DNA of 57,567 nucleotides, taken from assembly GCA_964438135.1 (NCBI GenBank), contig CAYTJW010000002.1:1-57567 (forward strand), written 5' to 3'. Below are positions 5,620 to 48,365 of the stretch, in pieces. A model generated the notes under the pieces. It made no database searches. It saw only the letters and a program-made list of their open reading frames with translations, and was not told the DNA's origin. How positions within the stretch are numbered: position 1 is the first letter of the stretch; every line of letters begins with the position of its first letter. The DNA comes from an uncultured Thermoanaerobaculia bacterium (GTDB lineage: Bacteria; Acidobacteriota; Thermoanaerobaculia; Thermoanaerobaculales; Sulfomarinibacteraceae). Position numbers and translations under genes: made by a program.

Positions 5620-5624
5620 AGTTC

Positions 5625-7025: not shown

Positions 7026-7026
7026 T

Positions 7027-7503: not shown

Positions 7504-7528
7504 CGGGCTGCACCCCGCTCCGGGTGGA

Positions 7529-15976: not shown

Positions 15977-16002
15977 GGGGAAGTGAAGGGGAAGAGCCGG
16001 GC

Positions 16003-16353: not shown

Positions 16354-16391
16354 CGGAGCCTCCTTTCGATGGGCCAGTTCGGCGGGATTGA

Positions 16392-17189: not shown

Positions 17190-17219
17190 GGGACCTCCTT
17201 CCTGGCCGGCGTCACGGCG

Positions 17220-17432
17220 TCAGCCGCTCGGGCTGGAGACGACCCACGGGGGCGCCTCGCCCGTGGCGCCGAGGTTCGTGTCGAAGAAGTGGTCGAGGAT
17301 GCGGTTCAGGAGGACCGTCATGGGGACCTTCCGGCTCTGCGCCGAGTTGAGGCGGGTCTTGAGCTGGTAGAGGCGCCGCACGTTGCGGTCCTCGATGAAC
17401 GGTTGGTAGAGGCTGAGTCGCGATCGGCTCAT
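17220..17432 (-). CDS. Small hypothetical protein
   Basis: Track ORF of 70 aa. AAGGAG lies 6 nt before ATG 17432. It sits between the MTase-helicase gene and ardC. No family was recognised. Confidence 0.5.
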   Translation of the reverse strand: MSRSRLSLYQPFIEDRNVRRLYQLKTRLNSAQSRKVPMTVLLNRILDHFFDTNLGATGEAPPWVVSSPSG

Positions 17433-17489
17433 GGGGTCTCCTTTCCGGCCGGGGCCGGACGCGAGGTGTGGGCGCCGGCTGCCGGCGTC

Positions 17490-25508: not shown

Positions 25509-26262
25509 CGACGGCGCCCTCGCCATCAGCCGGCTCCGCCCCGAGCGACCGCTCGGCCTGCCCGCCCTCGCGGTGGACCTCGGGAGCTTCCTCGCCACCG
25601 CCCGCGAGGTCGGCGCGGACGCCCTGCTGCTGCTCCTCACCGCCCGCGCGCTGGCGATGCGGCGTCACGGCCGCGTGCCGCTCGACGAGCTGCGGTGGGT
25701 GCTCGGGGCGAGCCGCCGCACGATCCGCCGGTGGCTCGACGCCCTGGAGCGCTCGGGCCTCGCCGTCTGGCACGACGAGCGCGGCCTCCTGCGCGTCGAC
25801 GTGGCCTCGACCGAGACCGAGCGGACGCTCTTCGCACCCGAGGACGCGCCGGGGGTCGTCCACCGCATCCCGACCTTCTGGTTCGTCCGGACGCTGCCGC
25901 TGGTCGGCCGGCGGGCCTTCCTGGTCTACCTGTACCTGCGCAGCCGCGAGCGCGCGGCCGGCCTCACCGCGCCGCTGACGCTCGGCATGGTGGCCAGGGC
26001 CTGCGGGATTCGCTCCCCGCGGCAGGCGGCCTGGGCACTCGGCCGTCTCCGGCGCGCCGGGCTGGTCACCACAGCCGGTGGTCACGGGCGCTTCCTGCTC
26101 ACCGACCCGCCGCCGCTGCGCAGGTGGGAGCGGCTGCTGCTGCTCTGGCGGGCGAGCGGCGCGTTCCCCGCAACCCGGCTCGGTTGCGCCGTGCTCGAGG
26201 TCGGCGCGCTGCTCGCCGCCGTCGTCGCCGGGGCGATCGTGTACCTCACCCTCCGGCGATGA
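25501..26262 (+). CDS. Hypothetical protein with winged-helix-like segments and a C-terminal transmembrane helix
   Basis: Internal ATG 25501 of track ORF 24670..26262 overlaps the upstream stop by 8 nt. It contains LGASRRTIRRWLDALERSGL and a C-terminal segment AVLEVGALLAAVVAGAIVYL. Confidence 0.55.
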   Translation: MPDDGALAISRLRPERPLGLPALAVDLGSFLATAREVGADALLLLLTARALAMRRHGRVPLDELRWVLGASRRTIRRWLDALERSGLAVWHDERGLLRVDVASTETERTLFAPEDAPGVVHRIPTFWFVRTLPLVGRRAFLVYLYLRSRERAAGLTAPLTLGMVARACGIRSPRQAAWALGRLRRAGLVTTAGGHGRFLLTDPPPLRRWERLLLLWRASGAFPATRLGCAVLEVGALLAAVVAGAIVYLTLRR

Positions 26263-27710
26263 CCCCCGACACCGTGCTCCACCTCACGTTCGACACCCGC
26301 CAGATGCGCGACTGGCGCGCCGCGACCGAGTTCTACCTCGCCCGCGACCGCTTCCTCCACGAGATGCTCAGGCGGGAGCAGGAGTTCGGCTTCCCGTTCG
26401 CCACGTACCGGGCCGCCGACGGCAGCACCGTGCCCTGCCGGCTCACCGGCGCGGACCTACGCCAGCACGCGCTCGTGCTTGGCGCCACGGGCTGTGGCAA
26501 GTCGTCGCTCCTGGAGGCGATGGCGCGGGCGCTGCTCGCGCGCACCCAGGCGTTCGCGCTCCTGGACCCGCACGGTGACCTCGCCCGGCGGGTCGCGCGT
26601 TGGTCCTGGGCCGAGCGCAGCCTCGACGTCCGGGTGCTCGACTTCACTGACCCCGGTTCACTTCCGTCGTGGAACCCGCTGGAGCGCATGGACGGCGTCG
26701 ATGCGGGCCGCCAGGTCGATCTGCTGGTCTCTGTGCTCAAGCGGCTGTACGCGGGCGAGCGCGCTGCCTCCTGGGCGTGGGGCGTGAAGGTGGAGGAGAT
26801 CTTCCGGGCCACGCTGCGGGCGGCGGTCGAGAGTCGCGAGCCGATGACGCTGCTCGACCTGGAACGCTTCCTGCTGGACACCTCGTTTCGGGAGCGGGTG
26901 CTGGAGTCAGCCGGGCCAGAGGTGCAGGGCTACTTCCTCGATCGCTTCGGCGCCAGGGAGGAGATGTACGTCTCGGGCGCGCTCAACAAGCTCTCGCCGA
27001 TGCTGTCCTCCGCGGCGGTGCGGGCGTTCCTCGGGCGCGGGCCGGCGCGCCTCGACCTGCTCGGCGCCCTCGACCGGCCGACCGCCCTCGTGGTCAACCT
27101 GGCGCGCGGCTCGCTCGGGGCTGCGGCCGACGTGCTCGGGCGGCTCGTCATGAACGCGCTGCTGCTGTCCGCCCTGCGGCGGGAGCGGCAGCGACCTGAG
27201 GTGCGCCGTAGGGCCGTGGTCCTGGTCGACGAGGCGCACAGCTTCGCAGGCGAGGAGAGCGGGCTGGTGGACCTGCTCGTGGCTGGCCGCAAGTACAGGG
27301 TGGCGGTCGCGCTCGCCTCCCAGGGGCTGTCGCTGTTCGCCCCGGCGCTGCGGCCGCTCCTGCTCGGCAACACGACCCGGCAGTTCTTCTTCCGGCTGCC
27401 GCACAGCGAAGCGCAGCTCCTCGGCCGCGACGTCCTCGAGCCGCTCGGGTCGATCCCGCGCGTCGCGGTGCGTCCGTACGACCACATCACCGACCCGCTG
27501 CTCACGGCCGAGGAGGAGATCGCCGCCCGCGTCCGCGAGATGACCGACCTGCCGACCGGGGCGTGCTACTGGGCGATCCGAGGTCGGCGGTTCCGGGCGC
27601 GGCGAATTCAGCTCACCCGGCCGGGCCGGCCACCGACGGTGTCGCTGGCTCCCATCTCCACAGGAGTCACAATCGACGCCTGGGGTGTCACCTCCACCTC
27701 TCGGTCATGA
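26259..27710 (+). CDS. T4CP/TraD-VirD4-like (FtsK-HerA superfamily) ATPase without N-terminal TM helices
   Basis: Internal ATG 26259 of track ORF 25695..27710 overlaps the upstream stop as ATGA. Walker A is LGATGCGKSS and Walker B VVLVDEAHSF. AGRKYRVAVALASQ resembles the T4CP C-terminal region. Confidence 0.75.
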   Translation: MTPDTVLHLTFDTRQMRDWRAATEFYLARDRFLHEMLRREQEFGFPFATYRAADGSTVPCRLTGADLRQHALVLGATGCGKSSLLEAMARALLARTQAFALLDPHGDLARRVARWSWAERSLDVRVLDFTDPGSLPSWNPLERMDGVDAGRQVDLLVSVLKRLYAGERAASWAWGVKVEEIFRATLRAAVESREPMTLLDLERFLLDTSFRERVLESAGPEVQGYFLDRFGAREEMYVSGALNKLSPMLSSAAVRAFLGRGPARLDLLGALDRPTALVVNLARGSLGAAADVLGRLVMNALLLSALRRERQRPEVRRRAVVLVDEAHSFAGEESGLVDLLVAGRKYRVAVALASQGLSLFAPALRPLLLGNTTRQFFFRLPHSEAQLLGRDVLEPLGSIPRVAVRPYDHITDPLLTAEEEIAARVREMTDLPTGACYWAIRGRRFRARRIQLTRPGRPPTVSLAPISTGVTIDAWGVTSTSRS

Positions 27711-29149
27711 CTCCACGACCCGCAGCTGATCCGCCCACGGCGCTGAGCCCCGACTGCGTGCACGTGGAAGGGGTCGGCGTTCTGAGCCGGAGCTTCCTCG
27801 CGAAGGTGCTCCTCGGTTTGGCGTCAAACCCACAGACCGCGCCTCTGCTTGCCGCGCCAACCAACCAGCCTCTCGCTCCGTTTCAATTCGGGTCGGACGA
27901 CCTCTTCGGCGACGCGATCACGCGCGCGCTCGAGCACCGCCGCGGCGTCGACGGTTACAGCCGGAAGACAATCTCGTCGATGCGCACTGCCATGAACTCA
28001 TTCCGGACCTTCCTCGCAGGAACGAAGGCTACGGAGCGCTTCCTGCGCGGCGAGGCCGTCGCCCAGCGGCAGCTACTCTTCGATTGGACGGCGTACGTTC
28101 GCGGGCGGAGTGGCTCCCACGACACCGTGAACAACTACTGGCGGAGCCTGAAGGCGGTGTTCTGCGCCATGGCCGAGGCCACCAACGCATACTCGCCGTT
28201 CACGGGCCTGCGTCCGCCTCGCCCTGGGCAACGGCGCATCCGCGCCATCACGCCCGAGTCGCTCTACCGCGTGTACGACTTCCTCGTGAACCGTCAATGC
28301 CGCTCGGAGTTCGAGCGCCTTCGCGACCTCGCCGTCTTCGCGCTCGCGGCGATGGCGGGCCTCCGTAACGGCGAGATTCGACGCCTCGCGGTGTCGGAGA
28401 TCGACGTCGAGACGGGCGCTGTGCACGTCTCGCGGTCGAAGGGGCGGTTCGGCGGGAAGGATCGCGTCGCGCAGCTGGTCGGTGATGGGCTGCCCATCGT
28501 GCAGGCGTACAGCACTGCGCGTCAGCGGGCATGCCGGACCCATCGGGAGTTCATCTCGTCACTGTTCCGCGACCGCCCACTGAGCGAGAAGGCGCTCCTC
28601 GGAGTGTTCCGCCAGGTCGAGGACGCGACCGGCATCTTCCTGCGGCCCCACATGTGCCGTCACACGTACAACGTCATCCTCGAGAAGGCAGGCGTTCGGG
28701 ACGCGGCACGGATGGAACTCCTCGGGCACACGAGGCTCGCGGCACTCCAGTACTACACCCACGCGTTCGTCGGCGAGGCTGCGGCTGCCGCGCGCGGCAT
28801 CTCCCTCGGGCTCGACACGCGGTCCCTCCAGCTCTCCTCACCCGAACAGCGACAGGCGCGAGACGCCCGTCGACAGCTCGTCATCCCAGACCCGCGTGTA
28901 GCGCATGGTCGTCACGATGCTCGCGTGGCCAGCGAGGGCCTGCACGACGTGGATCGGGACACCCCCTTTCAGGAGCATCGTGACGAAGGAGTGGCGGAGC
29001 GAGTGGATGCTGAACGCTACGCCGGACGCGCGGCGCACGGCGCGGACAATCCGGACCAGCGCCGACTCGGAGAGGAAGGGGCCGCTGCGCGCAGAGGCCG
29101 AGGCGAACATCCCTGGCGAAACGACGTTCCGTCGGCGCCGTTCCCGTAG
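27707..29149 (+). CDS. Tyrosine recombinase (int2) with an abnormal ~130-aa run-on tail
   Basis: Internal ATG 27707 of track ORF 27563..29149 overlaps the upstream stop as ATGA. The catalytic motifs are AGLRNGEIRRL, HMCRHTYN and LLGHTRLAALQYYTH. After the catalytic Tyr (~28750) the frame stays open to 29149, of which 28838..29149 is antisense to int3. Confidence 0.8.
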   Translation: MTPRPAADPPTALSPDCVHVEGVGVLSRSFLAKVLLGLASNPQTAPLLAAPTNQPLAPFQFGSDDLFGDAITRALEHRRGVDGYSRKTISSMRTAMNSFRTFLAGTKATERFLRGEAVAQRQLLFDWTAYVRGRSGSHDTVNNYWRSLKAVFCAMAEATNAYSPFTGLRPPRPGQRRIRAITPESLYRVYDFLVNRQCRSEFERLRDLAVFALAAMAGLRNGEIRRLAVSEIDVETGAVHVSRSKGRFGGKDRVAQLVGDGLPIVQAYSTARQRACRTHREFISSLFRDRPLSEKALLGVFRQVEDATGIFLRPHMCRHTYNVILEKAGVRDAARMELLGHTRLAALQYYTHAFVGEAAAAARGISLGLDTRSLQLSSPEQRQARDARRQLVIPDPRVAHGRHDARVASEGLHDVDRDTPFQEHRDEGVAERVDAERYAGRAAHGADNPDQRRLGEEGAAARRGRGEHPWRNDVPSAPFP

Positions 29150-29902
29150 GAAGACCGTGAGGATCTCCCGCAGCTCAGGGCCGATGTAGGCGGTGCGGTC
29201 CTTGCCGCCGCCGACGCCCTTCCCGCGGTGGACGAGAATGGTGCCCTCGGCGAGGTCGATGTCGGCGAAGTTCAGGCGGAGGAGTTCGCCCTTCCGCAGG
29301 CCGGCGTAAATGAAGGTCGCGAGGATCGCGACCGCCCGGGCGCGCTCGTAGGACGTCGGCCACGGGTAGTGCTCGGCGGCGAGGATGACCTGCTTCAACT
29401 CCTCGGGGCTCCGTGCCTTCGGATTGACGCGAGGCATCACCGGCGGCTTCATGCCCCGGAAGGGGTTGAAGATGGCGTCGCGCCGCTCGAGGTCGATGAA
29501 GAAGGTGCGCAACCCCCGCCAGAGGGAGTTCACCGTGACGCCGGAGAGCGTGGCACGGCGGCTGTTCCAGGCGACCCACTCCTCGATGGCGAAGAGGCGG
29601 TCCCCGAGCGCGTCGCCGGGGCGCGTGACAGACGCCAGGAACTTCTTGAAGTTGTCGTACGCCCACTTGTAGCTGCGCAGGCTGTCGAGGCTCTTGCGCT
29701 CGACGTGTCGGCTGGAGTCGAGGAACGCGGCGAACCGCCGGTCGAGCGCCCGGACGGTCCAGCGGGTCGGATCAGGGGAGATTGGCGTCAGGATGTCACC
29801 GGCCGGCGCCTGGCAGGGGCTCGGCGTGACCATCCGCGTTTCTGCTGCGTGTCGCGGAAAACCCGGAATCGCGGACGGTCGCCGCAGCGTGGATCGAGAC
29901 AT
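28838..29902 (-). CDS. Tyrosine recombinase / integrase (int3)
   Basis: Track ORF of 354 aa with AGLRKGELLRL, HSLRHSFVTML and LAGHASIVTTMRYTRV. The start codon lies 145 bp from the CCA end of the tRNA-Asp fragment, on the same strand. Confidence 0.85.
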   Translation of the reverse strand: MSRSTLRRPSAIPGFPRHAAETRMVTPSPCQAPAGDILTPISPDPTRWTVRALDRRFAAFLDSSRHVERKSLDSLRSYKWAYDNFKKFLASVTRPGDALGDRLFAIEEWVAWNSRRATLSGVTVNSLWRGLRTFFIDLERRDAIFNPFRGMKPPVMPRVNPKARSPEELKQVILAAEHYPWPTSYERARAVAILATFIYAGLRKGELLRLNFADIDLAEGTILVHRGKGVGGGKDRTAYIGPELREILTVFLRERRRRNVVSPGMFASASARSGPFLSESALVRIVRAVRRASGVAFSIHSLRHSFVTMLLKGGVPIHVVQALAGHASIVTTMRYTRVWDDELSTGVSRLSLFG

Positions 29903-30093: not shown

Positions 30094-30485
30094 TCGACCG
30101 GTCGGGGTCGACTGCTTGTTTACCGCGTACGTATGCGGGGAACGGAGACTACTGGGCCTCCCACGCCCGTCCGCGTGCCTGCGGACCGGTCGAGAGGTGG
30201 CCGAGAGTCGAAGGGACTGGGTACCCCCCCATCTAGCGCCGGATGCGACCGATGTGCAAGCGGGATGGGTGGCGCGGGCCGCTGCAGGAGCAGTCCGCGT
30301 CCTACTGGAGGACCCGGCCGCCCCAGACCACCGGTCTGCCGGCTCGACCCGGGCCGACTGCTCGATCGGCGTCGATTACCCTCGTCGAGGCCCGCGGTAG
30401 AATCTGGCTGCGCCGCAGGAGGAGGCACGCCGTGCCCCTGGACCCGAAAGCCGCCTCGGCGATCCGCAACGGCTGCCGCCCGTGG

Positions 30486-31430
30486 GTGGTGACGATGAGC
30501 CGGCGGACGGACATCGCCCTGCACCTGGAGTGGGTGTGGGACAAGATCGTGCGCGGCGGTGCCTACTACCAGAACCCGCGCAACAGGACGATTGCCTACT
30601 GCTCCCTCGACCCGCGGCTCGTGCGCGTCTTCCAGCCGTGGACGAAGGACCCGGTCGCGCTCGCCCCGTGGATTCCCCGGTACCAGGAGCGGGGCCTTCC
30701 GGTCTCCGTCTTCTGCACGGTGACCGGCTACCCGCAGTTCGTGGAACCGGGGGTGCCACGCCCCGACGCCTCGGTGGCGGCGCTCCGGCACATGCACCGC
30801 GACCACGGGGTGGCGATCAAGTGGCGCTACGACCCGATCTTCCTGACCGACAAGCTCGACGCCGACTGGCACGTCGAGAATGCCCGCCGCCTCGCAGGGG
30901 CGCTGGCGGGCGTCGTGACCGAGGCCGTCACTTCGTTCATCCAGATCACGGGCCTGTACGGGAAGATCGAGGCGTTCTTCAACGCCGAGCTGGCGCGCAA
31001 CGGGATGTCCTACCACGTCGCGACGCACGCGGAAATGGAAGACCTCCTCGCGCGCCTCACGGCGGTCTGCGCGACCGAGGGGATTCCCCTCGGCGTCTGC
31101 TGCCATCCGCAGCTCTCCCTTGACGCGCAGGCGCACGGCTGCGCCCAGGCGGCCTGCATCAGCATGTCGTTCCTGCGCAAGACCCGCCCCGACATCAAGG
31201 CCCTCCCGCTGAAGCCGACCCGCGAGCACTGCCTCTGCCACGAATCTCGGGACATCGGAGCGCTGAACAGCTGCCTCCACTGCTGCATCTACTGCTACGC
31301 GAACCGCAGCGCCGACATGCGCCCGGGGGCGACGCCGATCCCGCCGACCGCGCCGTGGCTCAGCCCTGACCCGCTCCCGCCCGGCTACCCGTACCCCGTA
31401 GCTGATGAGGTGCTCGGCCTCGTCTTGTGA
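30486..31430 (+). CDS. DUF1848-family protein (Cys-rich C-terminus, probable Fe-S site)
   Basis: Same frame as track ORF 30243..31430. The family N-terminus is (V)VTMSRRTDIALHLEWVWDKI, then IKWRYDPIF, with the C-terminal signature TREHCLCHESRDIGALNSCLHCCIYCYAN. The start is GTG 30486/30489 or ATG 30495. The 80 aa upstream look non-coding. Confidence 0.75.
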   Translation: MVTMSRRTDIALHLEWVWDKIVRGGAYYQNPRNRTIAYCSLDPRLVRVFQPWTKDPVALAPWIPRYQERGLPVSVFCTVTGYPQFVEPGVPRPDASVAALRHMHRDHGVAIKWRYDPIFLTDKLDADWHVENARRLAGALAGVVTEAVTSFIQITGLYGKIEAFFNAELARNGMSYHVATHAEMEDLLARLTAVCATEGIPLGVCCHPQLSLDAQAHGCAQAACISMSFLRKTRPDIKALPLKPTREHCLCHESRDIGALNSCLHCCIYCYANRSADMRPGATPIPPTAPWLSPDPLPPGYPYPVADEVLGLVL

Positions 31431-31542: not shown

Positions 31543-31577
31543 TTGACAGATCTTACATGTGGTACGATATTCGTACC
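31543..31577 (+). promoter_or_regulatory. Promoter TTGACA-N17-GATATT overlapped by the perfect palindrome GGTACGA-TAT-TCGTACC (operator candidate), abutting ATG 31578
   Basis: The -35 lies at 31543-31548, the -10 at 31566-31571 and the palindrome at 31561-31577. ATG 31578 falls 7 nt after the -10, so the transcript could be leaderless. Confidence 0.45.
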
Positions 31578-31907
31578 ATGGGACGGCCGCCGCCCCCTTC
31601 GCTCTTCACCCCGTCCATCTCGGACGTGCGTGCAGCGGTCGTCACGACGCTCGCCGAGGTCCAGCAGACGAGCGGGCAGGTCATGCCCGAACTCACCGAC
31701 AGCACGTGCCCATTGTTGGACCTCCCGGGCTTCGACAGCCTGAGCTCCGTCGAGGCGATCGTCCTGCTCTCTATGAAGCTCGACGTCGAGTTCGGGCACA
31801 GCTTCAGCCCCTTCGTCGATGGGAAGACCAAGCAGCCCGCGGACCTGGCCAGCATCGTGCGCGCGGTGGCCCGCGAACTCGGAGCACCACAGGAGGAGCA
31901 CCCATGA
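31578..31907 (+). CDS. Acyl/peptidyl-carrier-protein-like small protein
   Basis: Same frame as track ORF 31476..31907. It contains LLDLPGFDSLSSVEAIVLLSMKLDVEF, which matches the carrier-protein phosphopantetheine site pattern (G-x-D-S-L followed by an amphipathic helix). The start is ATG 31578, with ATG 31557 as an alternative. Confidence 0.55.
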   Translation: MGRPPPPSLFTPSISDVRAAVVTTLAEVQQTSGQVMPELTDSTCPLLDLPGFDSLSSVEAIVLLSMKLDVEFGHSFSPFVDGKTKQPADLASIVRAVARELGAPQEEHP

Positions 31908-32257
31908 GTGCAGACATGGAAGAGCAGCGCCGCGCCATCGCCGGTCGACTAAGGCTCGCCCGGGAACTCGCCGGGCTCTCGCAGAGCCAAGTGGCGCGGC
32001 TCCTCGGGCTCGCGCGACCCGCGATTTCCGAGATCGAAGCTGGCCGCCGTCGCGTAGCGGCAGAGGAACTCAGCGCGCTCGCAGGGATCTTCGGTGTAGA
32101 TGCGACGTGGCTCGCGGAGGGGCAGGGGCCGGGGAGCGCCAGAGAGAACGACCGTGTCTCGCTCGCCGCCCGGGAACTCGCGAAGCTGCGACCTGACGAC
32201 CTCTCCCGCGTGCTCGATCTCCTCGCAGCACTCCGGACGCACGGGGATTCGCAATGA
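31904..32257 (+). CDS. XRE-family HTH regulator
   Basis: Internal ATG 31904 of track ORF 31559..32257 overlaps the upstream stop as ATGA. The HTH is LRLARELAGLSQSQVARLLGLARPAISEIEAGRRRV. Confidence 0.8.
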   Translation: MSADMEEQRRAIAGRLRLARELAGLSQSQVARLLGLARPAISEIEAGRRRVAAEELSALAGIFGVDATWLAEGQGPGSARENDRVSLAARELAKLRPDDLSRVLDLLAALRTHGDSQ

Positions 32258-33141
32258 CGCGCCGTGAGGTCGCCAAGCGAGCGATCCACGAGGCTCTTCT
32301 CCTCCGAGCTCGACATGGGATCGCGGCGACGGAGGCGCTCTGCCCGCACGACCTCGCCGAGCGGCTCGGCATCGACGTTCGCTTCCTCGACCTCCCGAGC
32401 CTCGAGGGGATGTACGTCGCCGGTGAGGAGCCCGCGATCCTCCTCGGTGCGCTGCGCCCTCCAGGGCGTCAGACCTTCACCTGCGCGCATGAGCTGGGCC
32501 ACCACGTCCTACGTCACGGCATTCGCGTCGACGAGTTCTCGGGTGACTGGCACTCGCCGAGCCAGGACCTCGACGAGTACGCTGCAGACTGCTTCGCGGC
32601 GTTCCTCCTGATGCCCAGGCCGGCAGTGCTGGCGGCGCTCGGACTCCGCGCCTCCGACCCGGCCAACCCATCGCCCGAGACGGTCTACGTCGCCGCGAAC
32701 TGGCTCGGGGTAGGGTACGGCGCGCTGGTCGCGCACCTTCGGTGGTCCGTGCGCCTCCTGCGCGCAGCCATCGTGGACGAACTCGAGCACGCGCGCCTGC
32801 CCGCGATCCGGGCCGCACTCGCAGGGCCGACAGTGACAGAGGACGTCGTCGTCGCCGACGAGAGGTGGACCGGGCGCCCGATCGACCTACTCACGAACCA
32901 GGTCCTCGCGGCGCCGCGTGGTGCGCAGTGCGAGGGACGTTGCCTGGCGACTGCCGGTACGTACGGGACGCGCGCGCTCCTCCGCCCCGTGCGACCGGGC
33001 ATCGACCGCCTGCACGACCCGGCGACGGGGTGGGCTGCGTACGTGCGCGTCGGACGGAGCGGCTACGTCGGCCGCGCCATTTACCGCCACTTGGAGGACC
33101 CGGAGTATGACGACCGTCGACCCGACGTTGATCTCCCGTGA
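32254..33141 (+). CDS. ImmA/IrrE-family (COG2856) zinc metallopeptidase
   Basis: Track ORF of 295 aa with HExxH in FTCAHELGHHVLRH. It overlaps the XRE gene as ATGA, the classic XRE-ImmA pairing. Confidence 0.8.
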   Translation: MTRREVAKRAIHEALLLRARHGIAATEALCPHDLAERLGIDVRFLDLPSLEGMYVAGEEPAILLGALRPPGRQTFTCAHELGHHVLRHGIRVDEFSGDWHSPSQDLDEYAADCFAAFLLMPRPAVLAALGLRASDPANPSPETVYVAANWLGVGYGALVAHLRWSVRLLRAAIVDELEHARLPAIRAALAGPTVTEDVVVADERWTGRPIDLLTNQVLAAPRGAQCEGRCLATAGTYGTRALLRPVRPGIDRLHDPATGWAAYVRVGRSGYVGRAIYRHLEDPEYDDRRPDVDLP

Positions 33142-33883
33142 CGTCCTGTCGCGCGCGTGGCTCGATGCGCTCGCGATCGTGACGCAGCCCGGCGTCGAGG
33201 CGGTGTGCCCGCTCGTCGTATCCGTCACGGGGTTCGCGCCTGACGGGACGCCGCAGGAGGAGGGGCCAATCCGCCGCGAGCTGGATGCGACCCTCGAGCG
33301 GCTGGGGCACGCGCGCTGCCGGACCGTCGCGAACACGATCTTCCCGCGCTCCCTGTGGAATCCAGCGTCGGGTGCGGCAGCCCTCTACGCCAGGTACCTC
33401 CAGCTGTACCCGCGGATCGCGCGGTACCAGGCCAACCACCTCGGAACCTACTTCCACAGGATGATCGCGTTCGGCGACGGTGCGACTGCAAACCAGCTCG
33501 ACTTCATCATCCGGGCGGCCCGCGCGGGAATCCACCGCAGGAGCGCATACCAGATCGCGATCGTGGACCCGATGCGCGACCACAAAATGGTCCGCCAGCG
33601 CGGCTTCCCGTGCTTGCAGCAGGTCGCCGTCACGCCCATCGGCCGCGGCGACCTCGCGCTCACGGGCTTCTACGCCACGCAGTACATCGGCAACAAGGCG
33701 TACGGGAACTACCTCGGGCTCGCCGGCCTCGGCGCGTTTCTGGCGCACGAGCTCGAGCGCCACCTCGTGCGCGTCACGTGCGTCGCGGCGAACGCCCGCC
33801 TCGGCGACGCCGTCCCGCTGGCCGAGGCGCGTCGGCTCGTCGCCGCATTCTCCGCTCCACCCTCGGGCGGGCTCGCGTCATGA
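33107..33883 (+). CDS. Divergent thymidylate-synthase-fold protein (TS-like 1)
   Basis: Internal ATG 33107 of track ORF 32918..33883. HRRSAYQIAIVDPMRD...RGFPCLQQVAVTP...LALTGFYATQYIGNKAYGNYLGLAGLGAFLAHEL parallels ThyA motifs (RR...P.D, PC..Q..V, Y.(R/T)(S/Q).D...G.P.N). The assignment comes from motif order only. Confidence 0.5.
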   Translation: MTTVDPTLISRDVLSRAWLDALAIVTQPGVEAVCPLVVSVTGFAPDGTPQEEGPIRRELDATLERLGHARCRTVANTIFPRSLWNPASGAAALYARYLQLYPRIARYQANHLGTYFHRMIAFGDGATANQLDFIIRAARAGIHRRSAYQIAIVDPMRDHKMVRQRGFPCLQQVAVTPIGRGDLALTGFYATQYIGNKAYGNYLGLAGLGAFLAHELERHLVRVTCVAANARLGDAVPLAEARRLVAAFSAPPSGGLAS

Positions 33884-35634
33884 CGCTGTCAGGAACGCAG
33901 CCGCGTCCGCACCGCGGCTCCCTCTACGTCTTCGAGGGGCCGGACGGCGTCGGCAAGACGACGATCGCAGCGCGCTTCGCCGCCGTCCTGGGCGCCGAGG
34001 GCCCCGTGGCCGCGCTCTCGTTCCCCGGGCGCGAGCCGGGGTCACTCGGCCAGCACGTCTACGAGCTCCACCACGACCCGCGGCACTTCGGCATTGAGGC
34101 GCTCAGCCCTGCGAGCCTCCAGCTGCTCCACGTCGCTGCCCACATCGACGCTATCAGCGCCCGGATCGTGCCACTGCTCGACAGCGGCACCGGCGTCGTC
34201 CTCGATCGGTTCTGGTGGTCGACCTGGGTCTACGGCCTCGTCGATGGGGCCGACCGCGGCGTCCTTCGGGCGATGGTGGACCTCGAGCGGGTATGCTGGG
34301 GCCACCACGCTCCGGCGGCGGTCTTCCTCCTGACACGTCCGACTCCCCTACGCGAGGAGACCACAGCCGAGCGCTGGTTCAGGCTCACGAGGGAGTACGA
34401 TGCGCTGGCTGCAACAGAGGCCCCGACTAGCAGGGTGGTGTGGCTACCCAACGACGCCGCGCCCGACGATGTGGTGGCGCGGGCGATCGTCGCAGCCGCC
34501 AGGGCCCGTGACCCCATCGGCGTCCCCGCTGAGGAGCAGACGCCTGCGCGTCGCCCGGCCCCCGCAGACCAGCTCCCGCTCGTGTTCCCCCACCACTCCC
34601 CCCGACCCGTCGTGCCGCACCCTCCGCTCCCGACCCGCGACGCGTGGGCACCCGCCGAGCCTACCTCTGTGTTCGATACGTTCTGGCACTTCGCGGCAGA
34701 GCGGCAGGCGGTCTTCTTCCGCCGCGCCCGTCGCGAACCACCTCCGTGGACGGCCGACCCGATCCTCGCAGCCCACAAGTTCACGAACGCCTACCGGGCG
34801 TCGGACCGCGTGAGCCAGTTCCTCATCCGACGGGTCCTCTACGACGGGGACCAGCAGCCAGCGGAGATCTTCTTCCGGGCGATCCTCTTCAAGTTGTTCA
34901 ACCGGATCGACACGTGGTGCGACCTCGCGCGGGCCGTCGGCCCCATCGCTTGGGCCGACTACTCATATGAGCGCTACGACGCCCACCTGTTGGCGCGATT
35001 GGAAGCAAGTGATCGCATCTACTCCGCGGCGTACATCATGCCCGCTGCGGAGCGCACGCCAGGCGCCCGCAAGCACCAGACGCACCTCCGGCTCTTGGAG
35101 CGGATGATGCACGAGGGTGTGCCCGAACGACTCGCGGGCGCGCGTTCGCTGCGCGAGGCGTTCGAAGTCCTGCGGTCGTTCCCGATGCTCGGGAACTTCC
35201 TCGCGTACCAGTACGTGATCGACCTGAACTACAGTGAGCTGGTCAGCTTCTCGGAGATGGAGTTCATCGTGCCCGGCCCGGGCGCGCTCGACGGCATCCG
35301 GAAGTGCTTCGCCCATCTGGGGGGCCTCACGGAGGCCGACTTGATCCGGCGGGTCGCCGAGCGCCAGGAAGAGGAGTTCGCTGCGCGCGGCCTCGCCTTC
35401 GAGACGCTGTGGGGCCGGCCGCTCCAGCTCGTCGACTGCCAGAACCTCTTCTGCGAGATCTCCAAGTACGCGCGCGTGTACCACCCGGACGTCGCCGGGC
35501 TCACGGGTCGGACGAGAATCAAGCAGCGCTTCCGTCCGAGCCGGGAGCCCATCGCCATCTGGTACCCCCCGAAGTGGGGCATCAACGACCGGGTTGCAGC
35601 GGACCTCGGCGGGGCGGGCCGTGCGCGTCTTTGA
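33880..35634 (+). CDS. Two-domain protein: an N-terminal dTMP-kinase-like P-loop kinase and a C-terminal helical domain of the phage thymidine-hypermodification type (aGPT-Pplase / 5-hmdU-DNA-kinase helical domain-like)
   Basis: Internal ATG 33880 of track ORF 33355..35634 overlaps the upstream stop as ATGA. The N-domain has LYVFEGPDGVGKTT and VLDRFWWST, the Tmk signatures. A Pro-rich linker follows. The C-domain has PPWTADPILAAHKFTNAYRASDRVSQFLI and FPMLGNFLAYQYVIDLNYS, which I recognise from 'nucleotide kinase / DNA base hypermodification' proteins. This is a recollection, not a search. Confidence 0.6.
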   Translation: MTLSGTQPRPHRGSLYVFEGPDGVGKTTIAARFAAVLGAEGPVAALSFPGREPGSLGQHVYELHHDPRHFGIEALSPASLQLLHVAAHIDAISARIVPLLDSGTGVVLDRFWWSTWVYGLVDGADRGVLRAMVDLERVCWGHHAPAAVFLLTRPTPLREETTAERWFRLTREYDALAATEAPTSRVVWLPNDAAPDDVVARAIVAAARARDPIGVPAEEQTPARRPAPADQLPLVFPHHSPRPVVPHPPLPTRDAWAPAEPTSVFDTFWHFAAERQAVFFRRARREPPPWTADPILAAHKFTNAYRASDRVSQFLIRRVLYDGDQQPAEIFFRAILFKLFNRIDTWCDLARAVGPIAWADYSYERYDAHLLARLEASDRIYSAAYIMPAAERTPGARKHQTHLRLLERMMHEGVPERLAGARSLREAFEVLRSFPMLGNFLAYQYVIDLNYSELVSFSEMEFIVPGPGALDGIRKCFAHLGGLTEADLIRRVAERQEEEFAARGLAFETLWGRPLQLVDCQNLFCEISKYARVYHPDVAGLTGRTRIKQRFRPSREPIAIWYPPKWGINDRVAADLGGAGRARL

Positions 35635-36496
35635 GGCCGACACCGCGGACGACGTCTGGGGCGCGGCCGCCGACGAGCTGCTCCGCGGGGGCGACGCGGC
35701 GCAGCAGGCCAGCCGGTGCGGTCCCACGCGCGAGCTGCTCCACGTCGGGCTCGTCATCCGCGATCCGCGGCAGCGCTGGATCGTCTCGCGGCGGCCCGTG
35801 CCGAACCCCGCCTTCGCGATCGCCGAGGCGCTCTGGATTCTCGCCGGGCGGAACGACGCGGCCTTCCCGAACTTCTGGAACCCCATCCTCCCGAGGTTCT
35901 CTGGGAGCGGGCCGACGTATCACGGCGCGTACGGGCACCGGCTCCGGCACGCCTTCGGGCTCGACCAGATCGAGCGGGCGTACCGAGCCCTCGCGGCCGC
36001 CCCCGACACCCGGCAGGTCGTCCTCAGCATCTACCACCCTCGCCTCGACCTGCCCGACGAGGACGGGGTCGAGGCGTCGAAGGACGTGCCCTGCAACGTG
36101 TGCAGCCTCCTCAAGCTCCGCGGCGGGAGGCTCGAGTGGGCGCAGGTGATGCGGAGCAACGACCTCATCCGGGGCCTGCCGTACAACTTCGTGCAGTTCA
36201 CGACGATCCTGGAGGTGATGGCTGGGTGGCTCGGCGTCCAACCTGGGTCGTACACCCACTTCTCGGACAGCCTGCACGCCTACGAGACCGACATCGCTGG
36301 GTACGCCGTCGTCGGAGGCGCCACCCCGACGCCGCACGCTGACCGGCTCGATCTGCCGCACGACGAGTCGCACCGGGTCCTCGCCGAGCTGACCGCATCC
36401 TGCGATGCGCAATCCGACGAATCTGGACAGCGGTTCCGATTGAAGGCGGACAGGAGTCGGAGCGAAGCGACGCGGTGTGGCTCTCTGGATTGGTAG
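35621..36496 (+). CDS. Thymidylate-synthase homologue (TS-like 2; dUMP/dCMP hydroxymethylase-like); native 3' end displaced by an IS
   Basis: Same frame as track ORF 35594..36496. It contains AFAIAEALWILAGRND, GAYGHRLR, DQIERAYRAL, TRQVVLSIYHP, VPCNVCSLLKLRGGRLEWAQVMRSNDLIRGLPYNF and SDSLHAY, the full ThyA motif series including the catalytic Cys. From codon 36422 on, the reading frame is IS sequence. Confidence 0.75.
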   Translation: MRVFEADTADDVWGAAADELLRGGDAAQQASRCGPTRELLHVGLVIRDPRQRWIVSRRPVPNPAFAIAEALWILAGRNDAAFPNFWNPILPRFSGSGPTYHGAYGHRLRHAFGLDQIERAYRALAAAPDTRQVVLSIYHPRLDLPDEDGVEASKDVPCNVCSLLKLRGGRLEWAQVMRSNDLIRGLPYNFVQFTTILEVMAGWLGVQPGSYTHFSDSLHAYETDIAGYAVVGGATPTPHADRLDLPHDESHRVLAELTASCDAQSDESGQRFRLKADRSRSEATRCGSLDW

Positions 36497-36778
36497 TGTC
36501 CACCTTCAGGCTCGAGAACGCCCTCCTTTCGTCCCAAATCAGGTTAGTGGTGTTCGTCGTCGTCGTCGAGGCTGTGGTGCTGTGGTAAACCCGGGGGGTG
36601 GTCGGGGTGGGGGCCGGGTTTTCCAAGGAGCTGAGGAAAACGCGCAGCGTTTTCCAGGGAGCCTGTGGGCGGGTGTGGAAGTCCTCTTCCACAGCCGTCC
36701 ACAGGTCCCGGCAGCTCCGGCAGCTCCACAGCCGGGTGGGGGCCCGGCCGCCAGCGCGCCTGTCGCGCTGGCGCGTGT

Positions 36779-37543
36779 TCATGGCTGAGGCTCCTGTTCC
36801 TTGGCGCGTGCTTCGGCGTGACGCTTGGGTCGCATCGACTCGCCGTCGAGCTCGATCCGGTAGGCGTTGCTGGTAAGGCGGTCGAGGATCGCGTCGGCCA
36901 GGGTCGGGTCGCCGATCGCGCGGTGCCACTTGGCTACCGGCAGCTGACTGGTGACGATCGTGGAGCGCAGCCCGTGACGGTCCTCGAGGATCTCGTACAG
37001 GTCGCGGCGCTCGACGTCGCCAAAGGGGACCAGGCCCCAGTCGTCGAGGACGAGGACGTCGATCCGCGCGTAGGTCGCCAGGAGCTTGCCGTAGCGGCCG
37101 TCGCCCCTGGCGGCGGCGAGCTCCCGGAAGAGTTTCGGCAGGTGGAAGTACTGGGCGCTTGCGCCCTCGAGACACGCCTTGTGGGCCAGGGCACAGGCCA
37201 CGTAGGTCTTGCCCAGCCCGGTCGGGCCGGTGATCAGCAGGTTGTGGTGCTCGCTGACCCAGCGACACGAGGCGAGGTCGAGAATCAAGCCGCGGTCCAG
37301 GTTTCGCGGGTGGCGGAAGTCGAGGCTCTCGAAGCAGGCGCTCTGTCGGAGCTTGGCCGTGTGGAGGCGGCTCCTCAGGCGACGGCTGGCCCTCTCCGTC
37401 TCCTCGCGTTCCACGAGTAGCCCGAGACGGTCCTCGAAGGTGAGGCTCGAGACCTCCGGCATCTTCAGCTGCTCCTCCATCGCCCGAGCCATGCCGGTCA
37501 GACGCAGGGCGTGCAGCTTCTCCAGAATGGGGTGGATCAGCAT
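36779..37543 (-). CDS. istB: IS21-family helper ATPase IstB
   Basis: ATG 37543, preceded by GAGGAGG, lies inside track ORF 36779..37621. Walker A is LLITGPTGLGKTY and Walker B VLVLDDWG. Confidence 0.9.
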   Translation of the reverse strand: MLIHPILEKLHALRLTGMARAMEEQLKMPEVSSLTFEDRLGLLVEREETERASRRLRSRLHTAKLRQSACFESLDFRHPRNLDRGLILDLASCRWVSEHHNLLITGPTGLGKTYVACALAHKACLEGASAQYFHLPKLFRELAAARGDGRYGKLLATYARIDVLVLDDWGLVPFGDVERRDLYEILEDRHGLRSTIVTSQLPVAKWHRAIGDPTLADAILDRLTSNAYRIELDGESMRPKRHAEARAKEQEPQP

Positions 37544-37553
37544 GGCGACCTCC

Positions 37554-39095
37554 TCACCGGTAGTACTCAGGGCCGCGGATGTTCTGGTGCTCGATGACGT
37601 CACTGGCTGCGGGAGCCACAAGCAGGGGCTGCTGGTCGAGCCTCGTCTCGAGGATCGACTTCACGCTCCGGTACGACGCGCTCCGGATCAGGAGAGCCCG
37701 AGCGCACGCCGCTTCGAGCCGGTCGTTGCCGTACTGCTTGCCCAGCCGCAGCAGGCCCAGGCACGGCCGAAACCCCTGCTGCGGGTGGACCCTCGACCCC
37801 ATGATCGCCTCCACCACGCCCGCGGCCGAAGGGCCGATCTCTCCCGCCCACCGGACCAGCCGCTGAGGCGTCCACTCCGCCTGCGCCTGGTGCGCCGGCG
37901 GCATATGCTCACGCACCGTGGTGTGGTGCCCTCGCTTCCGGCTCCGCACATGGGCAGCCACCCTTCTTCCCTTGAAGAAGAGCTCCACCGTGGAGGCACC
38001 GGCCCTGACGTCCACCTCCTTCCTCACCAGCTGGTACGGCACGCTGTAGTAGTGACCCTCCACCTCGACGTGGTAGTCGACGTTGACCCGCGCCTTGCCC
38101 CACTCGGCAAACTCGAACCGCTCCTCCGGCAGCGCCTTCAGCGACGGCCGATCAAGGCTCTCGTACAGCTCCCGCCGCGACACCTTCAGCGCCCGCATCG
38201 GCCGGTCGTTCAGCTTCGCCAGCAGACCCCGCATCTCGGCGTTGAGCTCCGCTAGGCTGAAGAAGGTCCGGTTGCGCAGGCAGGCCAGGACCCACCGCTC
38301 GACCAGGAGCACGCCCGACTCCACCTTGGCCTTGTCCCTGGGCTTGCGCGGCCGGGCCGGTATCACCGCGGTGCCGTAGTGCCGCGCCATCTCGTGGTAG
38401 GTCGGGTTGAGGTCCGGCTCGTACCGGCACGCCCGTGTCACCCCTGACCTCGGGTTGTCCGGCACCACGATCTCCGTGACACCCCCGAAGAACTCGAACG
38501 CCCGCACGTGCGAGCCGATCCAATCCGCCAGGCCCTGCCCCCAGGTCGCCTCGGCATAGGCGTAGCTCGAGGCGCCCAGCACCGCCACGAAGATCGCCGC
38601 CGCCCTCACCTCGCCGGTCGCCGGGTCGGCGACGTCCACCGTCGGTCCGGCGTAGTCCACGAAGGTCTTCTCGCCGGCCCGGTGCTCCTGCCGCATCGTG
38701 ACCGCCATTTGGCCCTTCCACTCCCGATACAGGTCGCAAAACCGGCTGTACTGCAGCCCCTCCGGAACCCGCTCCTTGTACTCCTGCCACAGCAGGGCCA
38801 GGGTCACACCCTTGCGCCGCAGCTCACGGCTCACGACAGCCCAGTCCGGCAGAGACCGCCCACTCGCACCCCTCGCCGCCGGCGGGGGAAAGAGCAACCG
38901 CTCCAGCTCGCCGTCGTCCATCCCCTCGACCCTGCCCCAGGTCAGCCCCGCGGTCGACGCCCGCAGCAGGTAGTCACCGATCGTCCCGTGCGCCAGCCCA
39001 CAGCTCCTGCTCACCCGCCGATGGGACAGCCCACAGACCCACTTCAGTCGCAGTATCTCCCTGATCTTCCTCATGGATATCCTCTCCGCAGGCAT
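37554..39095 (-). CDS. istA: IS21-family transposase IstA
   Basis: ATG 39095, preceded by AGGAGG, lies inside track ORF 37554..39128. The N-terminal HTH is MRKIREILRLKWVCGLSHRRVSRSCGLAHGTIGDYL, followed by a DDE-type core. Confidence 0.9.
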   Translation of the reverse strand: MPAERISMRKIREILRLKWVCGLSHRRVSRSCGLAHGTIGDYLLRASTAGLTWGRVEGMDDGELERLLFPPPAARGASGRSLPDWAVVSRELRRKGVTLALLWQEYKERVPEGLQYSRFCDLYREWKGQMAVTMRQEHRAGEKTFVDYAGPTVDVADPATGEVRAAAIFVAVLGASSYAYAEATWGQGLADWIGSHVRAFEFFGGVTEIVVPDNPRSGVTRACRYEPDLNPTYHEMARHYGTAVIPARPRKPRDKAKVESGVLLVERWVLACLRNRTFFSLAELNAEMRGLLAKLNDRPMRALKVSRRELYESLDRPSLKALPEERFEFAEWGKARVNVDYHVEVEGHYYSVPYQLVRKEVDVRAGASTVELFFKGRRVAAHVRSRKRGHHTTVREHMPPAHQAQAEWTPQRLVRWAGEIGPSAAGVVEAIMGSRVHPQQGFRPCLGLLRLGKQYGNDRLEAACARALLIRSASYRSVKSILETRLDQQPLLVAPAASDVIEHQNIRGPEYYR

Positions 39096-39153
39096 GCCCC
39101 GTCCCCTCCTCGAGGACCACGAGACCATGCCCCGCCGCGAGAGTCACCATCCC

Positions 39154-39305
39154 CGTCCGCCATTCCGATCGATCCTGGTCACCGATTCCGATCCATCCTG
39201 GACACCCATTCCGACGACCCCGCCCAAACCGTCCAGCTTCACGTCGGAATCACTGTCCACCTTCGATCGGAATCACTGTCCACCTTCCGTCGGAATCAGT
39301 GTCCG
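39154..39305. repeat. Palindromic array of six ~18-bp IS-end repeats at a 23-bp period (three in each orientation) upstream of istA
   Basis: The forward-type repeats end in CCGAT/CCGAT/CCGAC at 39169, 39192 and 39215. The reverse-type repeats (TCGGAATCACTGTCCAC-like) start at 39244, 39267 and 39290. Confidence 0.6.
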
Positions 39306-39367
39306 GAATCCGTCGGCGCGGTCACTGCGACGAGCTCCGGTCGCCGGACCTCAGCTGCGGACGGCTG

Positions 39368-39598
39368 ATGGACCTCCTCCGAAGCGGCGTGCGACCGCCC
39401 GGCTATCAGAACCTCTTCGCGGTCGTGGCTGCGGATGCAGGACGGCGCCACGGGTGGTCCGACCTCGCTGGTGACATCCTCAGCACGTGCACGAACCCGG
39501 TCCTTCACCGCGCCTGCTCGCTGTGGTTCGAGAGGTTCCGCTCCCAAGCGCAGCACGACGAGCCGGCTCTTTCAGGTGAGGTGGGTCCACAAGTGTGA
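39368..39598 (+). CDS. Hypothetical 76-aa ORF, probable last gene of the IS-interrupted operon
   Basis: ATG 39368 shares its A with the TGA (39366-39368) of the reconstructed TS-like 2 gene. It is part of track ORF 39299..39598. No family was recognised. Confidence 0.35.
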   Translation: MDLLRSGVRPPGYQNLFAVVAADAGRRHGWSDLAGDILSTCTNPVLHRACSLWFERFRSQAQHDEPALSGEVGPQV

Positions 39599-48198: not shown

Positions 48199-48365
48199 GA
48201 TGCGCATGATCCACGCGCCGTACACGCACATTTCCACGCGGGCGACCTGCCCGCCGGCCTGCGCGTGGAAGCTCGCGTGCAAACCGCCTGTAACCCAGGG
48301 CACACGCCTGGCGCACGTCGCGTGCCCACACGGCGCATCGAGACAGCAGGACCGAGACACCACTC

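Follow-up and report, generated by a model that had tools for sequence, protein, structure and literature searches.

A six-gene operon split by an insertion sequence

The DNA analysed here (the window) is a stretch of 57,567 nucleotides, contig CAYTJW010000002.1 of assembly GCA_964438135.1, from an uncultured bacterium of the Thermoanaerobaculia (Acidobacteriota). It carries an operon (31578-39598) of six plus-strand open reading frames (ORFs), which encode, in this order, an acyl-carrier-protein-like (ACP-like) small protein, an XRE-family repressor, an M78 peptidase, a divergent thymidylate-synthase-fold protein (TS1), a thymidylate-kinase-type (Tmk-type) kinase fused to the helical domain HMUDK_hel, and a second thymidylate-synthase-like protein (TS2) that is split by an insertion sequence (IS). 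The operon reads as translationally coupled, each ORF overlapping the next one: the overlap is ATGA at three junctions (small protein/XRE, XRE/Peptidase_M78 and TS1/kinase fusion), 35 nt between Peptidase_M78 and TS1, and 14 nt between the kinase fusion and TS2. The G+C content of the region is ~70%.

31543..31571, plus strand: promoter-like site TTGACA-17-GATATT, a sigma-70-like consensus match only, directly 5' of the first gene
31578..31907, plus strand: ACP-like small carrier protein, 109 aa, with a GFDS(L) motif (family profile against the PDB)
31904..32257, plus strand: putative XRE-family helix-turn-helix (HTH) repressor, CapH/ImmR/DdrO-like, 117 aa (HTH_3 5.9e-15)
32254..33141, plus strand: Peptidase_M78 metallopeptidase (ImmA/IrrE/CapP-like), 295 aa, with an HELGH motif (PF06114 3.2e-15)
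33107..33883, plus strand: TS1, divergent thymidylate-synthase-fold protein, 258 aa (AlphaFold2 model and Foldseek)
33880..35634, plus strand: Tmk-type kinase fused to HMUDK_hel, 584 aa (Pfam, NCBIfam)
35621..36405, plus strand: 5' part of TS2, codons 1-262 (PF00303 1.1e-16)
36406..39324, minus strand: IS21-family insertion sequence, 2919 bp (istA, istB, inverted repeats, target duplication)
39331..39598, plus strand: 3' part of TS2, codons 263-350, with the C-terminal helical extension typical of the TS2 family

The promoter search, which counts consensus matches and nothing else, returned this one site against 0.0 expected in shuffles; given the ATG at 31578, a transcript starting from it would be leaderless or near-leaderless. 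A first-pass annotation, made by reading the DNA without database searches, had drawn the unit at 33107-39598. Its core genes stand, as do the ORFs at 33107-33883 and 33880-35634, their ATGA overlap, the 14-nt overlap with the ORF starting at 35621 and the protein motifs that it quoted, but the operon begins at 31578. The XRE/ImmA-type control and the carrier protein that it named as context are real and conserved with the operon. The DUF1848 gene that it added to them is not a partner: no homologue is present in any of 84 related loci, the closest relative (L087) lacks it too, and membership of the operon was rejected. This stand-alone gene (30243-31430; 1.8e-54) also matches the PADLOC model RTasDUF1848 (2.3e-20), which is linked to defence reverse transcriptases.

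Intact TS2 homologues of 335-350 aa from other genomes align in tblastn at 35621-36406 and again, through their residues 261-329, at 39326-39532. What lies between has every mark of the IS21 family. On its minus strand are istA (37554-39128, with rve and Mu-transpos_C_2 domains) and istB (36779-37621, IstB_IS21 3e-71); its terminal inverted repeats are imperfect, and the 6 bp of the target, CTGCGA, are perfectly duplicated on its two sides (36400-36405 and 39325-39330). Deletion of 36406-39330 in silico yields a 350-aa TS2 ORF without stops (35621-36405 joined to 39331-39598). The ORF at 39299-39598, for which Pfam gives no match, is the TS2 C-terminus, and 51 related loci have a TS2 whose C-terminal part matches it. 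Because the IS21 element interrupts the gene, the ORF 35621-36496, which had been taken for the second synthase in full, is a truncated reading of it. At its right end the element has tandem 23-nt repeats, TCGGAATCACTGTCCACCTTCGA, in three copies (39244-39312), with related copies at 39149-39215; the transposase may bind them as a series of terminal repeats.

Two proteins of the thymidylate synthase fold

TS2 matches PF00303 with 61.2 bits (gathering cut-off 24.3) and keeps the complete ThyA motif series, catalytic Cys included, as had been read by eye. In a residue map drawn against E. coli ThyA, the equivalents of E58, Y94, R126, C146, R166, S167, D169, G173, N177, H207 and Y209 are all in place, and E69, Y104, R131, C158, R178, S179, D181, G185, H219 and Y221 are invariant in the TS2 family. 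N189, at the position of the uracil-specifying Asn (ThyA N177), is kept in at least 90% of the family. The best match in the PDB is the hydroxymethylase MilA (1.9e-24), with true ThyA structures at 1e-5 to 1e-11, and the phage proteins nearest to it, as judged by E-value, are dUMP hydroxymethylases from SPO1 (gp29), SP8 and Goe9 (36-37% identity, ~1e-35), with PaMx11 gp51 also close (37% identity, 8e-39). TS2 also matches phrog_5131 (1e-59). TS2 is thus probably a dUMP hydroxymethylase. The logic of the SPO1 gp29-type pathway, and of phages with hydroxymethyluracil (hmU) in general, is alike (hydroxymethylase, then deoxynucleoside monophosphate (dNMP) kinase, then host NDP kinase). The present version nevertheless lacks a phage polymerase, dTTPase and dCMP deaminase, and unlike gp29, TS2 has a C-terminal extension of ~90 aa that is particular to the bacterial family. 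MilA, the CMP 5-hydroxymethylase of the Streptomyces mildiomycin pathway, is a bacterial hydroxymethylase of the same fold and the best solved-structure relative both of TS2 and of the TS1 model; it differs in having Asp at the pyrimidine-specificity position, where TS2 has Asn (the uracil type), in being cytosine-specific, and in belonging to an antibiotic biosynthetic cluster.

TS1 is far harder to place. Pfam gave no match; TIGR03283 matched at 5.9e-8 with 32.5 bits, below its cut-off of 174.55; phmmer against the PDB returned a chance match only; hhalign detected nothing when the comparison was with one ThyA sequence; and BLASTP against TS2 and against the thymidylate synthase of the E. 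coli DS-4 defence system (see below) was not significant. Since searches by sequence failed, placement needed a predicted fold. The AlphaFold2 model (pLDDT 93.3) matches MilA best in Foldseek (1.3e-8, TMq 0.62), with probability 1.0 to MilA, ThyA and the phage dCMP hydroxylase AfhB at TMq 0.5-0.63, and it also matches viral thymidylate synthases and dCMP hydroxymethylases; no close viral relative was found in these model-based searches. In the model, then, TS1 adopts the thymidylate synthase fold, which is what the first-pass annotation had proposed. The family counts 1650 homologues in the protein database, has no Pfam model, and is invariant at RR, GFPC (Cys169) and Asn201. In a colinear but low-probability hhalign alignment with the TS2 family, Cys169, RR143-144 and Asn201 are kept, and Pro80, Ala190 and a variable residue stand at the Glu58, Arg166 and Asp169 positions. 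The RR and PC of the pattern first picked out by eye are therefore retained, while on this low-confidence alignment the E58, R166 and D169 equivalents are apparently missing. TS1 probably acts on pyrimidines by way of its Cys and makes no classical use of folate.

A Tmk-type kinase joined to HMUDK_hel

The middle protein joins a kinase to a helical domain known from phage hypermodification clusters, as had been recognised from its motifs: Pfam places Thymidylate_kin at aa 18-154 (2.7e-12) and HMUDK_hel (PF18723) at aa 262-539 (8.5e-105; 350.6 bits, model positions 1-280 of 281). The kinase domain (~aa 13-207) has a P-loop, EGPDGVGKTT, and a DRF motif, and E19, G20, D22, G25, K26, D109 and R110 are invariant in the family alignment. 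Its family profile matches thymidylate kinases over the full domain, E. coli Tmk (4tmk) at residues 5-197 with 2.4e-13. The domain belongs by sequence to the thymidylate-kinase family over its whole length, although it scores 45.7 bits against the housekeeping dTMP kinase model TIGR00041, below the cut-off of 83.25. Against the PDB the fusion profile found thymidylate kinases only, and nothing for the helical domain.

The first-pass annotation had linked this protein to the 5-hydroxymethyl-deoxyuridine (5-hmdU) DNA kinases and to the aGPT-pyrophosphorylase route of phages. The kinase part of that link is not borne out: PaMx11 gp49, a phage-type 5-hmdU DNA kinase, matches AAA_33 and Zeta_toxin, the window kinase matches Thymidylate_kin only, and BLASTP of gp49 against the fusion finds nothing at E up to 10; a phage-type 5-hmdU DNA kinase was rejected on this ground. 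Nor were an amino-acid:DNA transferase (aGPT-Pplase2/AADT, PF18724; positive control PaMx11 gp46) or tailoring enzymes found among the operon proteins and 20 other large window ORFs scanned. The phage clusters (PaMx11 gp46-gp51, M6 gp51-gp55, ViI, PhiW-14 and SP10) have much the same ingredients: in PaMx11, gp49-gp50-gp51 form a same-order trio of kinase, HMUDK_hel and thymidylate-synthase-like hydroxymethylase, and the invariant HMUDK_hel residues are common to both sides. They differ in their P-loop kinase, of the AAA_33/zeta-like kind and unrelated to the window's Tmk domain, in their amino-acid:DNA transferase and pyridoxal-phosphate, radical-SAM, FAD or acetyltransferase tailoring enzymes, all of which the window lacks, and in their setting, as the window operon lies in a bacterial chromosome or island with its own repressor and peptidase. 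By sequence, what the fusion has in common with the kinase-HMUDK_hel pair of the phage pathway is the helical domain and not the kinase.

In phages HMUDK_hel homologues are separate proteins, such as PaMx11 gp50 (27% identity, 4e-18), which is encoded between the kinase gp49 and the thymidylate-synthase-like gp51. The motifs F.N..R..D, GPG...G and C525-E526..K529 are common to PaMx11 gp50, LuckyBarnes gp38 and the DS-4 protein, and the invariance of these residues, the Cys-Glu..Lys set included, across bacterial, DS-4 and phage members suggests that the domain is an enzyme rather than a passive helical appendage. Its AlphaFold2 model (pLDDT 89.9) has no match to PDB folds at E <=0.001; the weak best fold match is PaMx11 gp46, the 5-phosphomethyl-deoxyuridine (5-PmdU) glycinyltransferase (E 0.07-0.14, probability 0.77-0.85, TM 0.32-0.42), followed by endonuclease III (EndoIII-3). 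HMUDK_hel is here taken as the 'aGPT-Pplase clade 1' of the phage literature (M6 gp55, ViI gp160, PhiW-14 gp72, SP10 gp186C), an equivalence drawn from gene position and from tables in papers of 2018 and 2021, whose M6 labels disagree, and not from sequence. M6 gp55 is dispensable for the in vitro reaction, and the phage hypermodification papers searched assign no role to it and contain no function for HMUDK_hel or aGPT-Pplase clade 1. Some homologues of the fusion are named by NCBI 'putative DNA base hypermodification protein' or 'nucleotide kinase domain-containing protein'. Among phage proteins, gp38 of Brevibacterium phage LuckyBarnes is the homologue closest to the helical domain (37.6% identity; L086 1843-5858), and its gene comes after two glycosyltransferase genes and a gene for a 517-aa thymidylate synthase homologue; this hints that LuckyBarnes carries a glycosylated hydroxymethyl-pyrimidine.

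A putative carrier and a CapH/CapP-like regulator pair

In the alignment of the ACP-like family, D35 and S36 are invariant in 27 sequences, and the Ser of GFDSL is the putative phosphopantetheine-attachment residue. The PP-binding model PF00550 matches 15 of the 27 relatives with E no higher than 1 and 4.4e-7 at best; for the window copy it gives E 0.04 and 14.6 bits, below the gathering score of 20.8. When the family profile is compared with the PDB, acyl carrier proteins make up nearly all of the top 60 matches (1.6e-5 at best), in which the DS motif falls on the DSL of ACP. The small protein is thus a predicted ACP-like carrier. The two genes that follow resemble CapH/CapP, and likewise ImmR/ImmA and DdrO/IrrE, in placing an XRE helix-turn-helix protein and an M78 metallopeptidase with HExxH beside an immune operon. 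The peptidase matches the PADLOC capP profile at 1e-17, with its N-terminal half only. CapH/CapP is a DNA-damage-responsive regulator pair encoded upstream of its operon on the opposite strand (bioRxiv 10.1101/2022.04.27.489752).

Distribution and variants of the operon

In the protein database, more than 7237 homologues of the kinase fusion share its two-domain architecture. The fusion was found in at least 567 species-representative genomes, often on megabase contigs, among the Acidobacteriota, Chloroflexota, Planctomycetota, Cyanobacteria, Verrucomicrobiota, Proteobacteria, Bacteroidota and others. IMG/VR holds 11 contigs with a relative, of which two match over the full length. Gene content was counted in the 80 best genome loci of fusion relatives:

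TS1: 64/80 loci
M78 peptidase: 64/80 loci
XRE: 59/80 loci
TS2: 52/80 loci
ACP-like protein: 47/80 loci
MazG+MazG_C: 22/80 loci
TIR-Nmad2 pair: ~20/80 loci
radical-SAM enzyme: 9/80 loci

The commonest order is that of the window (ACP, XRE, M78, TS1, kinase fusion, TS2). The gene 3' of the kinase fusion varies: it encodes TS2, MazG+MazG_C or a radical-SAM enzyme, and in rare cases a metallophosphoesterase with a fused thymidylate-synthase-like domain. A MazG+MazG_C (~295 aa) or radical-SAM (~345 aa) protein fills the TS2 slot directly 3' of the kinase fusion in L006, L011, L014, L016, L018, L033, L036, L044, L055, L058 and L077, and the slot is also filled in one of these ways in L020, L022, L035, L045, L047, L063, L072, L073 and L076; in L031 and L048 a 750-aa metallophosphoesterase with a thymidylate-synthase-like C-terminus is inserted before TS2. 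One locus, from a metagenome-assembled genome of the Dehalococcoidia (L074 7143-9683), encodes TS1, Tmk and HMUDK_hel as a single 846-aa ORF, and this triple fusion argues for functional coupling of TS1 and the kinase fusion.

Loci without TS1 mostly consist of kinase fusion, TS2, TIR and Nmad2 and, in place of a CapH/CapP-like separate pair, have a divergent XRE-M78 fusion upstream. Five of them (L029, L040, L046, L049 and L050) have neither TS1 nor ACP, and encode a 350-aa XRE-Peptidase_M78 fusion divergently on the minus strand at ~6590-7670. TS1 and TIR-Nmad2 tend to exclude one another: the pair is present in 12 of 16 TS1-less loci and in 8 of 64 TS1-containing ones. TIR/ThsB, dCTP-deaminase-like, SLOG, type I restriction-modification, Mokosh, AbiE and PD-T4-6 families are enriched among the 127 proteins that flank these loci most closely. 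Neither the commonest families of these proteins nor the window ORFs scanned include phage structural families. Related loci are often near integrases. The closest relative of the window operon (L087 3255-8253, minus strand) has a TS1 that is 76% identical; upstream of it lie genes for a YfbR-like HD protein, a 498-aa GTP cyclohydrolase II protein, a creatininase-family protein and a 367-aa protein, which may be another nucleotide-based system.

Discussion

The nearest system with a known phenotype is DS-4 ('NTTI') of E. coli, an anti-phage system validated and replicated in the DefensePredictor study (Science 2026; PMC13092281), in which the 5-hydroxymethyluracil-kinase domain and thymidylate synthase are counted as newly validated defence domains. 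It consists of genes for a thymidylate synthase, an adenylate-kinase-like dNMP kinase, an HMUDK_hel protein, a TIR protein and Nmad2 (PMC13092281). Its thymidylate synthase is 27% identical to TS2 (4e-21) and its HMUDK_hel protein 26% identical to the helical domain of the window (5e-29). Like the window operon, it is bacterial, occurs in defence contexts and has a small nucleotide kinase beside the HMUDK_hel gene. There are a number of differences: (i), the DS-4 kinase is a separate adenylate-kinase-like protein and that of the window a fused Tmk; (ii), TS1, the ACP-like protein and the XRE/M78 pair of the window are missing from DS-4; (iii), the TIR and Nmad2 genes of DS-4 are missing from the window, where a search of its whole length found neither (both by tblastn) and no MazG_C. 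About one related locus in four does have DS-4-like TIR and Nmad2 genes next to the kinase fusion and TS2 (E-values as low as 1e-75 and 1e-98). Because thymidylate synthase and HMUDK_hel are homologous and TIR-Nmad2 sits beside relatives of the fusion, the window operon forms an architectural class of its own within the broad family to which DS-4 belongs. It is a variant of the recently recognised DS-4-type defence built on thymidylate synthase, kinase and HMUDK_hel and not categorically new, though its chemistry is potentially novel; with DS-4 already validated, the locus is less unprecedented than first supposed. Our literature search found no paper describing the six-gene class, and neither a reappraisal of Dnd nor the CapH/CapP preprint describes it. 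Restriction-modification-like roles for bacterial versions of these genes were reportedly suggested by Iyer et al. in 2013.

We hypothesize, at a probability of roughly 0.55, that the operon is a widespread, self-regulated, DNA-damage-inducible anti-phage defence that makes and further processes 5-hydroxymethyl-dU nucleotides, and that the window carries a copy inactivated by IS21. The XRE repressor would hold the operon off until DNA damage or single-stranded DNA during infection activates the M78 peptidase, which would then cleave the repressor, as homology to CapH/CapP, ImmR/ImmA and DdrO/IrrE suggests. TS2 would next turn dUMP and methylene-tetrahydrofolate into 5-hydroxymethyl-dUMP; its similarity to SPO1 gp29 and PaMx11 gp51 and its complete ThyA-type active site with the uracil-specifying Asn are consistent with this. 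The Tmk domain, a family member with intact motifs, would phosphorylate the modified dNMP to the diphosphate, and host Ndk would convert this to the triphosphate (5-hm-dUTP), a pre-replicative route as in hmU phages. More speculatively, 5-hmdU could then enter replicating DNA, mainly that of the phage, while dTTP synthesis is starved of dUMP; HMUDK_hel might act on the hydroxymethyl-pyrimidine in DNA or nucleotide, with TS1 and the phosphopantetheinyl carrier taking part; and phage replication or transcription might be blocked by the product, a lesion or adduct. In vitro, bacterial transcription is reported to be shut off when 5hmU in the template is phosphorylated enzymatically (PMC6457204), which offers at least one plausible route to toxicity.

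The defence role is favoured by the relation to DS-4 and by the defence-dominated flanks of the related loci, and a logic of nucleotide pools by the exchange of the last gene for MazG+MazG_C or radical-SAM enzymes and by the dCTP-deaminase-like neighbours. The first-pass annotation had described a non-phage locus in a defence island, which these results support, and had listed three hypotheses, of which inducible production of modified pyrimidine nucleotides agrees best with the data. In its favour are the operon's own damage-type repressor and peptidase, the lack of a conserved nuclease partner, the last gene that relatives swap or join to TIR-Nmad2, and the relation to DS-4.

Several points weigh against this hypothesis. 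The operon type is known from its sequence, the anti-phage phenotype having been shown for E. coli DS-4 only, and the DS-4 paper gives that phenotype without dissecting the mechanism (PMC13092281). The case for TS2 as a hydroxymethylase, and not a methyl-transferring synthase, is one of similarity; TS1 seems to lack folate-binding residues; and a DNA-base kinase is another possible identity for the Tmk domain, as in SP10 gp186 too a kinase is fused to the helical domain. Many family members lack TS2 and have TS1 only, so that 5-hmdU may not be the common product and the product of TS1 may be the common currency instead. The operon has no conserved partner that would load the carrier, nor one that would serve as a nuclease effector. 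CapH/CapP is normally divergent, but the XRE-M78 genes here are co-directional and lie inside the operon, after the ACP gene. Incorporation of hmU would hit host DNA too. The window copy itself is disrupted, with TS2 deprived of its C-terminal 88 residues and the operon interrupted, and for these reasons is probably impaired.

A different chemistry could follow the same derepression: after DNA damage, TS1 and the Tmk-HMUDK_hel protein might build a new pyrimidine derivative, the helical domain acting as a Cys-dependent transferase like the phage 5-PmdU transferases, possibly with a link through the phosphopantetheine arm of the carrier, and a nucleotide-carrier or DNA-protein adduct would poison phage replication. 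We regard this as a tentative proposal, on the doubtful side; if true, it would give a function to aGPT-Pplase clade 1. Unlikely, in our judgement, is starvation of the pools and nothing else, in which TS2 drains dUMP and methylene-tetrahydrofolate, its product is trapped by the kinase, the variants lose dNTPs to hydrolysis by MazG, and dTTP collapses and phage replication stalls with no modified base in DNA. Depletion of dNTPs is an established class of defence, TS2 is interchangeable with MazG+MazG_C (22/80 loci), dCTP-deaminase-like proteins are neighbours and the kinase is of the nucleotide (Tmk) type. Such starvation leaves unexplained, however, the always-present HMUDK_hel, with its remote glycosylase/transferase-like fold and invariant Cys-Glu-Lys, as well as TS1 and the carrier protein, and phosphorylation of hm-dUMP leads toward a polymerase substrate, not toward sequestration. 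Somewhat less probable still is a role in counter-restriction, with the operon modifying its own integrative, possibly conjugative, element against restriction in the recipient when DNA damage induces it, much as phages protect their DNA. ImmR/ImmA-type regulators classically govern the induction of integrative conjugative elements and prophages, the window is a tRNA-Ser island with an integrase, Replic_Relax and an FtsK/TraB-like gene, related loci are often close to integrases, and the characterised relatives of HMUDK_hel and TS2 all serve phage self-protection; yet DS-4 by itself is enough to protect E. coli from phages, long chromosomal contigs hold many of the loci, flanked by defence and not transfer genes, about one in four has TIR-Nmad2 (TIR domains being known from defence, for example Thoeris), AADT and other tailoring transferases are lacking, and most versions have no dTTPase.

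The two remaining hypotheses of the first-pass annotation fare worse than its inducible producer. Constitutive self-marking, with a hypermodified thymidine on host DNA that an unlinked nuclease would read in the manner of Dnd or Dpd, found no support and appears improbable: the enzymology is borrowed from DNA-hypermodifying phages and relatives bear the NCBI hypermodification label quoted above, but the repressor and peptidase imply an operon that is normally silent, a conserved nuclease partner is missing, replacement before replication by way of hm-dUTP cannot single out particular sequences, and IS disruption is tolerated although cells with a cognate restriction arm usually die when the modification arm is lost. 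That the operon is a degraded prophage remnant without current function seems very improbable indeed, and prophage origin was rejected. TS2 and HMUDK_hel homologues are abundant in phages (871 and 474 records) and the window copy carries an IS; against this, the six-gene order recurs over many phyla with strongly conserved proteins, the flanks are of the defence kind, the fusion is nearly absent from IMG/VR (11 contigs, 2 of them full-length), and no phage structural families are among the commonest of the 127 flanking proteins or the window ORFs scanned.

Phages evade restriction by using 5-hmdU and its derivatives in place of thymidine. The operon family suggests that bacteria of many phyla run this phage thymidine chemistry in reverse, as an inducible immunity. 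Being conserved and modular, with natural fusions (TS1-kinase), swaps (TS2 for MazG or radical-SAM) and a carrier, it makes the mechanism directly testable, and it offers a handle on HMUDK_hel/aGPT-Pplase clade 1 and on the new TS-fold family TS1. If cells do make 5-hmdU nucleotides, this would also bear on how modified bases in environmental DNA are read and on DNA-labelling enzymes.

Other features of the window

The window is a tRNA-Ser-linked island downstream of a principal sigma-factor gene, with these further genes:

5561-5649: tRNA-Ser, adjoining the integrase
5781-7025: integrase with Arm-binding domain
12033-13430, minus strand: C5 cytosine methylase
13411-15495, minus strand: HATPase_c_3 protein
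17490-21122, minus strand: N6-methylase-SNF2 helicase fusion, 1210 aa
23405-24802: Replic_Relax
25695-27710: FtsK/HerA/type IV secretion system-coupling-like (FtsK/TraB-like) gene
27563-29149, plus strand, and 28838-29902, minus strand: two tyrosine-recombinase ORFs, convergent, with ~310 nt of overlap

Replic_Relax and the FtsK/HerA/coupling-like gene suggest an integrative conjugative element of the actinomycete type. The methylase/HATPase and methylase-SNF2 genes (12033-21122) are likely to be further defence or modification genes. The surroundings listed in the first-pass annotation (Gabija with GajA and GajB, the tyrosine recombinases, the set of SNF2 helicase, DUF1156 methylase and DUF499 protein, and the DUF1848 gene) are all present. 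A 526-aa ORF (46629-48209) without a Pfam match lies before the DUF1156/methylase gene (48366-51443), and the G+C content of the latter is ~0.61 against ~0.70 in the rest of the window.

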